The notes beneath the pieces were generated by a model, which was not told the DNA's origin, did no database searches, and saw only the letters and a list, made by a program, of their open reading frames with translations. Of a DNA stretch of 30,592 nt, positions 1,376-5,340 are shown piece after piece. Source of the stretch: Planctomycetota bacterium. GTDB taxonomy: Bacteria > Planctomycetota > SZUA-567 > H5-PLA8. Each line of letters begins with the position of its first letter. The first letter of the stretch is position 1. The DNA lies in assembly GCA_045863855.1 (NCBI GenBank), contig BTVV01000072.1, positions 1 through 30,592 on the forward strand. The letters run 5' to 3'. A program made the translations under genes and the position numbers.

Positions 1376-2842
1376 ATGACGCAAGCGCATGAGTCTTGGG
1401 ATAAGCCCTGGAAGCGCTGGCCTGGGCAGCGTTACGCCGACGCGCCGGCGCCCAGCGCCGAAGAGCGCGAAAAGATCAAGGCTCGGGAAGCGCAGGAACG
1501 AGACCGCGCCCGCGAGGCGCGCGCGCGCGATCCGCGCCCCAACATTCTGTTCGTCTTCAGCGATCAGCAGATGGCCCAGGCGCTGAGTTGCGCCGGGAAT
1601 CGCTGGGTCAATACGCCGCACATGGATCGCCTGGCCGACGAAGGCGTGCGCTTCGCGCAGTGCTACTGCGTCGCGCCCGTCAGCGGGCCTTCGCGCGCGG
1701 CGCTCATGACCGGCCGCCTGCCGCACGAGAACGGAGTCGTCTTTAACGGCGAGTCGCCCAGGCCCGAACTGCCCAACTTCGGGCAAACCTTCCGCGCAGC
1801 CGGCTACGCGACGGTGTACAGCGGGAAGTGGCATCTCCCGAATAGTTATCCGCAAGGCGACGACGCGATCCCCGGCTTCGACCAGATCAATCGCCCCAAA
1901 GATCCCCGCAACAAGCACGGGCTCGGCGACGTGAACGATTTCGGCTTCGCGTTCGACGCCGATTTCTTTCTGCGCTACGCGGCACCCCAGATCGGCATCC
2001 CATGGCTCTACACCGTCTCGCTGCACAATCCGCACGACATCTGCCAGTTCGCCATGCGCAAACCGCGCAAGCATCGCAACCTGGATCTATATCCCCCGCT
2101 CCCCTCCAACTTCGAGATCGATCCCGAGGAAGTCGACTTCCTGCGCATCGGCCGCGAATCCAAGAGCACGCACATCGAGATGGCGCCTTCGCGCCCATGG
2201 GACGGCGATCAATGGCGCGCGTATATCCAGGCGTACTACCGCCTGGTCGAGCAGGTGGACCGCGCGCTAGGTTACATCCTCGATGCGCTCGACGAGAGCG
2301 GGCAGGCCGATAACACGCTCGTCGTTTTCGCGTCCGACCACGGCGAAGGCTGCGGCGCGCACCGCTGGCCGTGCAAGCTCGCGCTGTACGAAGAATGCGT
2401 GCGCGTGCCGCTGATTCTGCGCTATCCCGGGCGCATACCCGCGGGCCGCGTGGACGACACGAGCCTCACGTCGCTGCTCGATCTGTACCCCACCTTCTGC
2501 GATTTCGCGGGCTTCGCGCCGCCGCCGGTCCGCGGACAAAGCCTGAAGCCAGCGATCGAGGACCCGCGGGCCGCGTGGCGCGACTTCGTGCCCGCCCAGA
2601 TCGCCGCGTACCGCGGCGACGAACACCAGCGCCACGGCCGTATGCTGCGCACCGCGCGTTACAAGTACAACGCGTACGATATCGGCGCGCGGCGCGAGGA
2701 ACTCTACTTTCTGGAGGCCGATCCGGGCGAGACGCGCAACTTGGCCCGCGACGGCGCGCACGCTTCCGCATTGACCGAACACCGCGCCCGCCTGCGCGCG
2801 TGGCTCGCCGAGACCGGCGATACTTTCGCGGTGCCCGAATAA
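1376..2842 (+). CDS. Formylglycine-dependent (S1) sulfatase, Ser-type, no signal peptide
   Basis: RPNILFVFSDQ, signature SGPSRAALMTG, GKWHL, HNPH, SDHG, K..LYEE..RVPL, ELY....DPGETRNLA. Confidence 0.92.
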   Translation: MTQAHESWDKPWKRWPGQRYADAPAPSAEEREKIKAREAQERDRAREARARDPRPNILFVFSDQQMAQALSCAGNRWVNTPHMDRLADEGVRFAQCYCVAPVSGPSRAALMTGRLPHENGVVFNGESPRPELPNFGQTFRAAGYATVYSGKWHLPNSYPQGDDAIPGFDQINRPKDPRNKHGLGDVNDFGFAFDADFFLRYAAPQIGIPWLYTVSLHNPHDICQFAMRKPRKHRNLDLYPPLPSNFEIDPEEVDFLRIGRESKSTHIEMAPSRPWDGDQWRAYIQAYYRLVEQVDRALGYILDALDESGQADNTLVVFASDHGEGCGAHRWPCKLALYEECVRVPLILRYPGRIPAGRVDDTSLTSLLDLYPTFCDFAGFAPPPVRGQSLKPAIEDPRAAWRDFVPAQIAAYRGDEHQRHGRMLRTARYKYNAYDIGARREELYFLEADPGETRNLARDGAHASALTEHRARLRAWLAETGDTFAVPE

Positions 2843-2846
2843 GGTC

Positions 2847-2875
2847 TTGCGGCATTCGCGCGCTCACGTTAAAGA
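2847..2875 (+). promoter_or_regulatory. Putative promoter for the ankyrin gene leader
   Basis: TTGCGG-N17-TAAAGA; the implied start near 2882 coincides with the first hairpin of the structured leader. Confidence 0.4.
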
Positions 2876-2880
2876 AACCG

Positions 2881-3002
2881 GCGCAGCGTTCAGGACGCTC
2901 CCGGTCCGCGGGAAGGGCAGAGCCCACCTGACCGACGTACAATCGACGATCCTCCTTTCGGCCCAGCCAGCGGACACCGGGCTCCAGCGAAAGGAGGCCA
3001 AT
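2881..3002 (+). ncRNA. Candidate structured cis-regulatory leader RNA with anti-SD helix and pseudoknots
   Basis: AGCGT(2885-89)/ACGCT(2895-99) hairpin; loop TCAGG complementary to CCTGA(2927-31); GGGC/GCCC hairpin (2915-25); GTCCGC(2904-09)/GCGGAC(2970-75); CCTCCTTTCG(2951-60)/CGAAAGGAGG(2988-97) covering the SD. Confidence 0.65.
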
Positions 3003-4397
3003 ATGGCCTTGCCGTTACCGTCCCGTCCGTCCGTCGAGCAATTGAAGAAGCAGGCAAAGGAACTCCTGCGCGCGTGGCAATCGCAAGACGCCCCGGCGCT
3101 CGAACGCCTGAAGGCGTCGCATCCCGAGTATGCGTCGAGGCCGCTCGCGGACACGAATGCCTTGGCGCTCGCCGATGCGCAACTGGTCCTCGCGCGCGAA
3201 TACGGTCATTCGAGCTGGCCGAAGCTGAGGCACGCGATCGAGAACCTGAACGGGCAGTCCCAGGACGAGGTGGACGCATTCATGAGCGCCGTGCGCGCCG
3301 GGGATCACCCCCAGGTTCGCGCGAAACTCGAAGCCAACCGCGCGCTGGCCTGCGCCTTCGACCGCCACGCCTTCGACGCCAACCCCGTCACGCTGGCCGC
3401 GTCGCGCGGCGACTTGAAGCTGGTCGATCTGCTGCTCGAATTCGGCGCGGACATCAACAAGCCCAGCCGCTGGTGGGCCGGGGGCTTCACGCCGCTGCAC
3501 GGCATCTTCTGGCACGACCGCAAACAGGAACTGGCCGATGCGCTGATCGCGCGCGGTGCGGTGTTGGACATTCATTCGGCGGCGGGCTTGGGAAAACTCG
3601 AGGCCGTGCGCGCGTGGCTCGCGAAAGAACCGTCGCTCGTCAACGCGCGCGCCGGCGACGGGATGACTCCGCTGCATTACGCGGCCACACCGGAGATCGC
3701 GGCGTTCCTGCTCGAACGGGGCGCCGAGATCGACCTGCGCGACATCGACCACGGCGGCACGCCCGCGCAGCATGCGGTCAAGGACCGCCCGGACGTGGCG
3801 CGTTTTCTGATTCAGCGCGGCGCCAAACCCGACCTCTTCATGGCCGCGGCCCTGAACGATCCGGCCTTGGCCGAAAAGTTGTACGCCGCCGATCCCGGTT
3901 GCTTGAAGGCCCGAATCGGTATGGGCGAATTCAAGCTCAAGGATTCGGACGGCGGGCACATCTATTGTTACGTGGCAGGAGGGGAGACGCCGTTCCAGGC
4001 GGCCGCGGTATCCAATGCGGTTGAGATGGTCGACTGGCTGGTGCGGCACGGGGCAAACGTGAACGAGCGCGCCGGCTACGACGACGGCACGGCGCTGCAC
4101 TTCTGCGCCTGGAACGACAGTTTAGAGGGGGCGCGCAAATTGCTCGATCTGGGAGCCGAACTCGAATGCCGCAGCGGGAAGATCCACGAGAATACGCCCA
4201 TGGGCTGGGCCATCGTCAGCGGTTCGGCGCGGGTCGTGGAGCTTTTCATCGAGCGCGGCGCGAAGTTGCTGGACTACTACTTCGACGAGGTCCGCAAGGG
4301 CAAGGCGGGCGAGTTCCGGCCGTTCAAGCACGTGCCGCTGGAACGCTACACCGAGATCGAGGCGGCGCTGCTGGCGGCGAAGCAATCACGAGGTTGA
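3003..4397 (+). CDS. Ankyrin-repeat protein with a small N-terminal helical module
   Basis: True start ATG 3003 after AAGGAGG. Multiple ankyrin motifs (GFTPLH, GMTPLHYAA, GETPFQAAA, GTALHFCA, NTPMGWA; LL..GADIN). N-terminus LPSRPSVEQLKKQAKELL...LADAQLVLAREYGHSSWPKL. Confidence 0.9.
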   Translation: MALPLPSRPSVEQLKKQAKELLRAWQSQDAPALERLKASHPEYASRPLADTNALALADAQLVLAREYGHSSWPKLRHAIENLNGQSQDEVDAFMSAVRAGDHPQVRAKLEANRALACAFDRHAFDANPVTLAASRGDLKLVDLLLEFGADINKPSRWWAGGFTPLHGIFWHDRKQELADALIARGAVLDIHSAAGLGKLEAVRAWLAKEPSLVNARAGDGMTPLHYAATPEIAAFLLERGAEIDLRDIDHGGTPAQHAVKDRPDVARFLIQRGAKPDLFMAAALNDPALAEKLYAADPGCLKARIGMGEFKLKDSDGGHIYCYVAGGETPFQAAAVSNAVEMVDWLVRHGANVNERAGYDDGTALHFCAWNDSLEGARKLLDLGAELECRSGKIHENTPMGWAIVSGSARVVELFIERGAKLLDYYFDEVRKGKAGEFRPFKHVPLERYTEIEAALLAAKQSRG

Positions 4398-4476: not shown

Positions 4477-5202
4477 CTACTCCGCCGTCGCCGCGGGCCG
4501 CTTGCGCGAGATAATCACGACCACCGCCAGCACCACGAAGATCAACGCGCCGATGGCCAAGACGGCCGTCGTATTCAGCTTGGCCACGCTGAAGCGCGCG
4601 CGCAGAACGCCGCTACCCTTCTGGCCGCCTACGAAGTCCGCAAACGTGCCTTCCCACACCACCGTATTCTTGCGCTCCACCTTGTCCCCGTTGTGATCCA
4701 GCAGCTTGCCCGGGCCGGTCAACTTCAGCGTCACCTTGCTGTTCATCGTGTCCTTCTGCGCCTTCTCTGCCAGTTCCGCCGGCGCCGCCAGCTTGCGTTC
4801 GAAGATCCAATCGTCGTTGACTCGGCGCAGGGAGATGCCGCCGAAAACCTGCTCGACTTCCGCGTGGCCCTTCCAGGCCGAGAACTTATCGAGATGCTCC
4901 GCCCGGAAGGTCCCTTCGAACGTGGCGCGGTTGGTGCTCTCGTTGTCCTGCTTCACGAACTTTTCCAGCACCAGTCCCGCGGGCTTCTCGGCCTTCAGCT
5001 TCTCGCCGTCCTCCACCGGGTTGTCCCACGACGCCTCGGACGCCAGCTTGGTCAGGAGCCCCTGCCGGCCGCGCTCGAAGCTGTAGACCAGCGTTCCCGC
5101 GCCGTCTTCGTCGAAAGCGATCTCCTCCTGATAGGTGAAGCACCCGCATAGGCTCCACAGCGCCACGAACGCCAGCGCCGCCTGCATTCGCTTTCGAAAC
5201 AT
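4477..5202 (-). CDS. Putative lipoprotein with C-terminal transmembrane anchor (LppM-like)
   Basis: Start ATG 5202: basic N-region, hydrophobic stretch, lipobox-like LCGC; 'DEDGAGT' and 'LTGPGKLLDHNG...VVW' pattern; C-terminal TM helix followed by SRKR. Confidence 0.7.
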   Translation of the reverse strand: MFRKRMQAALAFVALWSLCGCFTYQEEIAFDEDGAGTLVYSFERGRQGLLTKLASEASWDNPVEDGEKLKAEKPAGLVLEKFVKQDNESTNRATFEGTFRAEHLDKFSAWKGHAEVEQVFGGISLRRVNDDWIFERKLAAPAELAEKAQKDTMNSKVTLKLTGPGKLLDHNGDKVERKNTVVWEGTFADFVGGQKGSGVLRARFSVAKLNTTAVLAIGALIFVVLAVVVIISRKRPAATAE

Positions 5203-5340
5203 GGGGAGGCTCCTATTCGAGGAATGGCCCCGGTTGTCTGAGGGTCGCATCGATCCGGCCGGTGCGATTGAAGCATGCAGGCGCTGCCGGGTTCGGACAT
5301 GCGCGGGCGCCGCACGAGTCTAAATATCCTAGCTTCGCGC

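Follow-up and report, generated by a model that had tools for sequence, protein, structure and literature searches.

A conserved, covarying leader RNA with two predicted pseudoknots, probably an uncatalogued protein-controlled on/off switch, precedes genes and operons of a small helical protein module

Leaders of ribosomal protein genes regulate at the level of the operon. ANTAR and BglG/LicT proteins combine a small RNA-binding output domain with varied sensor domains and have a cognate RNA in cis, and these RNAs are simple hairpins that mostly control termination. The ZTP riboswitch (pfl motif) has a 5' subdomain and a small 3' hairpin, which are joined by a variable linker and docked through a pseudoknot (10.1101/521930). 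5'-UTR motifs bound by the protein that they encode are an established category, PBC (PMC11109978); the available part of the main text of that paper has no mention of glyoxalase, ankyrin or Clp. Mycobacterial ClpC2 is a self-repressing drug sponge that binds promoter DNA (PMC10030653). Moreover, a motif before glyoxalase, flavin monooxygenase or NmrA-like genes has been described as cluster 630,527 (10.64898/2026.10.21.760802).

Here we describe a leader RNA in a window of 30,592 nt (the whole stretch of DNA that was analysed) from a Planctomycetota bacterium. It precedes a gene for an N-terminal module and ankyrin repeats (Table 1). Leaders of the same sequence class are called class I, and a second sequence class (class II) precedes PF20066 genes. 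Like the ZTP riboswitch, the leader has two subdomains, a variable linker and docking by a pseudoknot. Unlike it, the leader has two pseudoknots, matches no Rfam model and masks the SD, while the studied ZTP example uses a terminator; the genes behind the leader are not folate or purine genes, and the leader is tied to one protein domain. As in autogenous leaders, a category defined in PMC11109978, the 5'-UTR structure follows the gene of the presumed binder. It does so also where that gene is not the first one, as leaders of ribosomal protein genes do. Unlike in those leaders, the candidate binder is not a known nucleic-acid binder, it occurs in many interchangeable fusions, and Rfam has no such motif. 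Compared with the RNAs of ANTAR and BglG/LicT, this leader is a double pseudoknot over the SD, and no Pfam match to the ANTAR or BglG/LicT domains was found in 102 class I and 35 further proteins (among the matches listed, at most five families per protein). ClpC2 joins a small N-terminal regulatory domain to a partial copy of a drug target, and fusions of the module to Clp_N occur in both classes, but ClpC2 acts via promoter DNA and the conserved element here is a structured RNA. HDV-like and other self-cleaving ribozymes gave no Rfam match in the leader, and HDV-like ribozymes differ from it in topology.

The sole Rfam 15 match within the window was a tRNA gene (1166-1240, + strand; RF00005, 58.7 bits). 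For the region 2780-3100 the best E values were 3.5 and 4.2, below the gathering threshold, and in 20 homologous loci of both classes the Rfam 15 matches were confined to pieces of group II introns outside the leaders. No description of the RNA was found in the literature covered, subscription journals lying outside this coverage, and 11 supplementary files of PMC6429828 gave no match. The motif of cluster 630,527 may overlap with the class II RNA. The leader RNA is real, conserved and uncatalogued. It is probably a protein-controlled on/off switch, and we lean towards the explanation that the module binds the leader RNA to repress its own operon, under the control of interchangeable C-terminal domains that serve as sensors or decoys.

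Table 1. Features of the leader RNA and of the gene that follows it, in positions of the window
Feature	Position	Strand	Basis or remark
Weak sigma70-like promoter: -35 TTGCGG 2847-52, 17-nt spacer, -10 TAAAGA 2870-75	2847..2875	+	read from the sequence
P1 hairpin AGCGT/ACGCT, 2885-89/2895-99	2885..2899	+	E<0.05 at 1 pair in class I and 2 in class II
Pseudoknot 1: P1 loop TCAGG 2890-94 with CCTGA 2927-31	2890..2931	+	E<0.05 at 2 pairs in class I and 5 in class II
P1b mini-stem C2901-G2911, C2902-G2910	2900..2912	+	inferred; invariance too high for significance
Pseudoknot 2 (kissing helix): GTCCGC 2904-09 with GCGGAC 2970-75 in the P4 loop	2904..2975	+	class II: 2 pairs at E<0.05
P2 hairpin GGGC/GCCC, 2915-18/2922-25	2915..2925	+	E<0.05 at 2 pairs in class I and 1 in class II
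Variable linker joining the 5' and 3' subdomains	2932..2950	+	alignment A2: sequence and length differ
P3 anti-SD helix CCTCCTTTCG/CGAAAGGAGG, 2951-60/2988-97	2951..2997	+	class I: 2 pairs at E<0.05
P4 inner stem GCCC/GGGC, 2961-64/2979-82; its loop holds the 3' strand of pseudoknot 2	2961..2982	+	class I: 2 pairs at E<0.05
N-terminal all-helical module, about 80 aa	3003..3242	+	remote homologue of the N-part of PF20066; candidate RNA-binding domain
464-aa gene, module and ankyrin repeats	3003..4397	+	ORF and Pfam

A sequence-only reading of the window had named five pairings in the leader, and all of them are present with every coordinate exact and the ATG at 3003. It had also stated that a perfect 10-bp helix buries the whole SD; this was confirmed, with the SD AGGAGG (2992-2997) lying inside P3. 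The P1b mini-stem, which presents the 5' strand of pseudoknot 2 as a loop, was absent from its pairings. When the single leader is folded, the result is unremarkable at the GC content of the window (z -1.55; 11 of 200 shuffles equal it). The host genome has 1806 SD-ATG sites, and two of them have a perfect 10-bp anti-SD helix within 70 nt. The P3/P4 hairpin of the window has a predicted energy of -24.1 kcal/mol, and the SD is paired at more than 90% in a nested ensemble, a model that excludes the pseudoknots. The main support for the leader RNA is comparative and not single-sequence folding.

Upstream of the leader, a sulfatase gene (1376-2842, + strand) stops 5 nt ahead of the putative -35 box. 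Downstream, the gene at 4477-5250 (- strand) is convergent to the ankyrin gene and has a weak LppM match. The ankyrin gene appears to stand on its own. The putative promoter would imply a transcript start near 2881-2884. A start near the first hairpin had been proposed before, and the family agrees with it: TTGAC occurs 28-44 nt upstream of P1 in 48 of 94 homologous leaders and in none of them in a control window, and its position is that of the -35 TTGCGG in the window. Since a -35 box at 28-44 nt before P1 recurs across the family, the leader RNA would be the 5' end of the message. The promoter of the window itself is weak, and a consensus promoter scan of the window returned 0 promoters.

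The alignment of class I leaders, made with MAFFT, has 73 sequences. In this alignment 87.8% of cells pair, compared with 42-50% for slid partners, and both sides change at 26 of 35 pairs. Pseudoknot 1 changes on both sides at all five of its pairs, and one pair of P4 has 29 compensatory cells. The 6-bp core of pseudoknot 2 is paired in 438 of 438 cells; it is near-invariant in class I and its rare changes are mostly compensatory or G-U. We also used a tree-aware test (our own script, with an APC-corrected G statistic and a null in which parsimony substitutions are re-dealt along the tree). The sequence-only reading had asked for covariation, and it was found in both classes. Among 93 class I leaders, in an alignment fitted to the nested helices and not to the pseudoknots, nine pairs had E<0.05 and all nine are predicted pairs. 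Among 94 class II leaders there were 14 such pairs, of which ten are predicted and four are not (Table 1 gives the predicted pairs by helix). The first class I alignment, which had low power, gave one pair at E<0.05, and its top five pairs are all predicted ones. The two P1b pairs were counted in class I as CG 88, TA 1, GC 1, GG 1 and as CG 85, TG 3, TA 1, AT 1, GG 1. According to alignment A6, the P2 hairpin is inside the P1b junction in class II and after it in class I. Taken from these alignments, the leader is a real, conserved and covarying RNA with two predicted pseudoknots and a helix over the SD.

The fifth pairing of the sequence-only reading had been offered as a second pseudoknot or a competing conformation. 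Of the two options the second pseudoknot fits best. The extended CCCG/CGGG helix of the competing conformation was rejected, because one of its inner pairs is broken in 38 of the 73 sequences and the other in 42. Since the two-pair P1b stem flanks its 5' strand, pseudoknot 2 fits best as a loop-loop kiss between the two subdomains. Two class I leaders (L051, L092) have an additional hairpin between P4 and the SD.

Opening the SD by constraint costs 4.7 +/- 3.3 kcal/mol over the 73 leaders in nested folding. With the SD forced open, the 6-bp core of pseudoknot 2 forms alone in 42 of the 73, and in RNA that runs up to the SD without including it, the predicted fold has pseudoknot 2 as a plain long-range helix. 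An anti-anti-SD helix that would join the purine run 2910-17 to the anti-SD strand was considered and rejected (-6.5 kcal/mol, compared with -5.1 in shuffles); such a helix is used in 5 of the 73 SD-open folds, and no conserved one was found. In class I P3 covaries with the SD, and the signal of an expression platform is weaker in class II, where the pairing of the SD is 0.83 compared with 0.70 in controls (n=101), a modest excess. RNA contigs of a close relative correspond to 2893-3052 and 2907-3457 and thus run from the leader into the gene (contigs only, with no DNA control). None of them extends further upstream in the leader, which is weak evidence as contigs show no start. The RNA runs contained 5-8% of words, as contigs.

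The 3' hairpin is very stable, with a mean of -19.4 kcal/mol across the 73 leaders. This stability might suit a stable RNP or scaffold, such as a processed leader that stays protein-bound and masks the SD incidentally, or a fixed brake or thermosensor for a stress protein, and the fusions of the module to Clp and Lon substrate domains suggest protein-damage stress. However, the RNA lies in cis in every case, at the 5' end and on the same strand, and it contains the SD. In addition, the contigs of the close relative continue from the leader into the gene, and a simple brake needs no two conserved pseudoknots. Therefore, we regard an RNP, scaffold or brake as improbable.

In the host genome four genes begin with the module and all four have this leader. 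When the class I covariance model, built from the 73 leaders, was run on this genome, exactly those four sites scored high and one more site had an E value of 0.6. For other genomes, the class I module loci are the best 80 of 536 confirmed loci. All 77 of these 80 that have full upstream DNA carry the RNA, most of them having trained the model; of the remaining three, one is cut and has a partial match and two are too short. From the titles of their records, we take the class I loci to include Acidobacteriota, Verrucomicrobiota, Planctomycetota, Gemmatimonadota, Chloroflexota, Armatimonadota, Myxococcota and Actinomycetota lineages. Beyond the training set, the class I RNA was found in Methylosinus, Burkholderia, Variovorax, Azospirillum, Nonomuraea and Gemmatirosa. 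Thus the expected conservation of the leader upstream of homologues, other phyla included, was borne out by the comparative loci. A scan of 150 host-phylum genomes gave 17 RNA matches with E<1e-5, each of them directly before a module gene, and four weak matches with no module gene behind them. The weak matches L312-L315 and L323, which do not precede module genes, were treated as chance, and the matches L118, L324 and L325 were left out of the inspection. L315, a class I-like match with an E value of 0.009, may be a decayed copy. The class I model weakly matches one class II leader (E 0.0034), and the class II model has no match to the window. On viral contigs, three of the 14 class II pattern matches and one of the two class I ones looked real; two viral protein matches were spurious and internal.

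Of the 25 module matches from the host phylum, eight gave no RNA match, one of the eight being probably spurious, and this counts against binding by the module. In three of the loci (L094, L096, L099), the 200 nt upstream of the module gene look by eye like diverged leaders with longer P1b stems. Neither covariance model matches these three, and when a sequence-free descriptor was applied to them and to L127 and L149, shuffles scored equally well. By eye, the basic pair of the module is lost in two of five RNA-less module genes examined. One RNA-less module-like gene (L124:1486-2955) has an acidic first helix, and its C-terminal segment has a MoaD/ThiS-type look by eye.

Class II leaders of the same plan precede canonical PF20066 genes of Sinorhizobium and Microbulbifer (179-208 bits) and a PF20066-like gene of Shinella. 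They also precede VOC, pentapeptide and other fusions on plasmids of Methylobacterium, Rhizobium, Sulfitobacter and Pseudomonas. These class II genes carry the leader whenever the promoter is their own. We also scanned metagenome contigs for the RNA first, with a class II pattern in which the kissing hexamers were not required to be Watson-Crick, and obtained at least 118 loci. Among the 118 matches listed, the hexamers are fully Watson-Crick in 98 and paired in 111 when G-U is counted. The first free hexamer position is U-A in 63, C-G in 41, U-G in 9 and C-A in 5, and the second is U-A in 44, C-G in 70, U-G in 3 and C-A in 1, relatives among these sequences not being independent. Of the listed loci 108 were kept as real and ten were dropped, seven with an unpaired hexamer position (two of which have a module gene) and three as chance by eye. 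In the kept leaders, among the matches listed, the module gene comes first in 94, second behind a MATE pump in four, and is not seen in ten. Eight of these ten have at most 300 nt of downstream DNA, and four of the eight begin a MATE-like gene; another (L219) has a module start that breaks off. At L237 the leader is followed by a complete MATE gene but by no module gene, and a viral locus (L182:2718-4150) has a class II leader and a broken MATE gene, again with no module gene; both count against binding by the module. Group II intron fragments were seen near two plasmid leaders (L128:745-1343, L164:248-324).

In six operons (L163, L164, L186, L190, L234, L242), the leader is followed by a MATE gene without the module and then by the module gene. 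Two of them lie on plasmids, Paracoccus pAMI4 and one from Agrobacterium vitis, and four are metagenome loci. In all six the PF20066 gene in second position has no leader of its own. Thus the RNA is linked to the module at the level of the operon and not to the translation of the module ORF. Such an arrangement is a prediction of an autoregulatory RNA-binding protein, but it can equally arise from a riboswitch that controls an accessory gene along with its target. In each of three complete replicons there is a single strong class II RNA and a single PF20066 gene. Altogether, the RNA occurs with the gene of one domain in 98 of the 108 kept class II leaders (among the matches listed) and in 17 of 17 class I leaders. 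A PF20066 search found none in the host genome and 14 controls, and found it in one of 201 genomes around one further genome (G151). The sequence-only reading had tied the leader to an ankyrin gene and had left a riboswitch or a bound protein as options. The tie to the ankyrin gene has to be given up, as the RNA follows the N-terminal module and its operon instead, and this favours the bound protein over the riboswitch.

A new small-molecule riboswitch class, in which the docked fold binds a metabolite, an alarmone or a toxic compound and the module is merely shared, must be weighed at this point. Like riboswitches in general, the RNA is a conserved, structured 5' leader, and its expression platform lies over the SD. 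It is a compact double pseudoknot with many near-invariant bases, and its pair of subdomains, variable linker and pseudoknot recall ZTP (10.1101/521930). The strong conservation of unpaired as well as paired bases fits a ligand pocket equally well, and counts against binding by the module. In addition, the VOC, MATE, pentapeptide-repeat and kinase-like genes downstream could share a theme of detoxification, and L237 has the RNA without a module gene. On the other hand, the RNA tracks one domain through more than a dozen unrelated fusions, and the module stays as the second gene in the MATE operons. Neither the host genome nor the three replicons have extra strong copies before other genes, and there is no sign of a pathway regulon. 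We therefore consider a riboswitch unlikely, though worth keeping in view.

The module itself forms at least 3,925 clusters at 50% identity (E<0.001). Residues 1-80 of the window protein have no Pfam match, and this protein does not reach the cut-off of PF20066. The class I and class II modules are nevertheless related (hhalign 96.7%, E 4e-10): the module aligns to about positions 4-58 of the PF20066 (Glyoxalase_8) model, and class II proteins pass its cut-off. Among 102 class I relatives, scanned from the best 150 module matches, eight match PF20066 at E<0.01 and two of them are above the cut-off. The C-terminal domains in these 102 are ankyrin, Clp_N, ClpX zinc finger, LRR, TPR, WD40, HATPase, Lon substrate domain, FliM, FliG_N, BFN, T2SSE, sigma54 AAA and DUF2442, and in class II the module is fused, among others, to VOC, Clp_N, ClpX zinc finger and Lon substrate domain. 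These domains are mutually unrelated, and the module is the only common part, so no shared pathway is visible. In P0012, P0049, P0059, P0070, P0108 and P0133 the module is joined to partial housekeeping proteins (HATPase, FliM, Lon substrate domain, FliG_N, the N-part of a secretion ATPase, sigma54 AAA), which look like decoys, some of them perhaps cut at contig ends.

The predicted fold of the module is all-helical, with three helices in class II and an insertion in class I. Searches with these models gave no clear match to a solved structure or a known RNA-binding fold. The best structural match had Z 3.7 for class I and Z 5.4, to DUF1244, for class II; DUF1244 (3fyb) is a weak match common to both models (Z 3.5 and 5.4). 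In the ESM Atlas only unnamed clusters matched the module (0.85-0.87). In 97 class II proteins that were picked through their RNA, helix 1 has conserved K (0.98) and R (0.98), and these together with a Trp and an Asn near the C-end are 98-100% conserved. In class I, K/R at two sites is kept in 92% and 99% of N-terminal copies, which were selected by likeness to the query and are biased in this respect, and in 21% and 34% of internal repeats, where the core residues are kept. The conservation of these basic residues fits the module being a candidate for nucleic-acid binding. The C-part of PF20066 (e.g. L242:5027-5452) is predicted to be a Tudor/SH3-like barrel, a middling match (Z 6.5, rmsd 2.4, 57 aligned). 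As far as this model goes, Glyoxalase_8 looks like a misnomer, since the C-part does not have a glyoxalase fold, and the name may have come from the VOC fusions.

A small, basic, helical module might also bind DNA. The operator could be the palindrome CCGCGG at 2906-2911, as in the case of ClpC2, a self-repressing and DNA-binding Clp-domain sponge (PMC10030653). However, the covariation spans 60-100 nt and G-U pairs are kept, which is the signature of a single-stranded RNA, and the palindrome does not hold across the family, being disrupted in class I variants and missing from most class II leaders. A DNA operator is therefore very improbable.

Binding of the leader by the module is supported by one RNA per module gene, the MATE-first operons, the pairing of RNA classes with module classes and the basic helix 1. 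Under this explanation, transcription would start at P1, and the 5' subdomain (P1, pseudoknot 1, P1b and P2) would dock on the P3/P4 hairpin through the 6-bp loop-loop helix. The covariation in the aligned sequences shows this predicted docked structure, with P3 hiding the SD. The N-terminal module of the protein from the same operon would clamp the docked fold, so that the SD stays closed and the message is OFF. The fused C-terminal domain (ankyrin in the window; VOC, Clp_N, ClpX zinc finger, Lon substrate domain, a Tudor-like barrel and others elsewhere) would sense or soak up a ligand, a toxin or a partner protein. Binding of the RNA would then be altered and more of the protein, or of the MATE pump ahead of it, would be made, possibly through an ON fold that has the 6-bp helix without P3/P4. 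The proposed logic would be shared with ClpC2, which works on DNA (PMC10030653), and with ANTAR proteins. The direction of control by the module is a guess.

A more specific proposal, which we put forward tentatively as possible, is that these proteins are a widespread and so far undescribed family of RNA-based one-component regulators, in which a three-helix domain reads the double-pseudoknot leader and the fused decoys, when hit, release translation. The decoys would be parts of essential machines (Clp_N, ClpX zinc finger, Lon substrate domain, FliG, FliM, HATPase, secretion ATPase and sigma54 AAA fragments) or scaffolds (VOC, ankyrin, LRR, pentapeptide repeats). When a toxin, an antibiotic or a phage protein hits the decoy, the decoy or an efflux pump would be translated.

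The leader adds a common and uncatalogued double-pseudoknot class of RNA, and it gives a testable function to an unannotated module domain and to the apparently misnamed PF20066 family. Members are present in the culturable and tractable Sinorhizobium, Paracoccus and Methylobacterium, and thus the orphan motif is open to direct experiment. If the RNA is a riboswitch, it would be a widespread orphan class. If the module binds it, the two would make a modular protein-RNA switch that is like ANTAR in design and unrelated to ANTAR. Moreover, if the fused domains are decoys, their list would be a map of the attack routes on soil and water bacteria.
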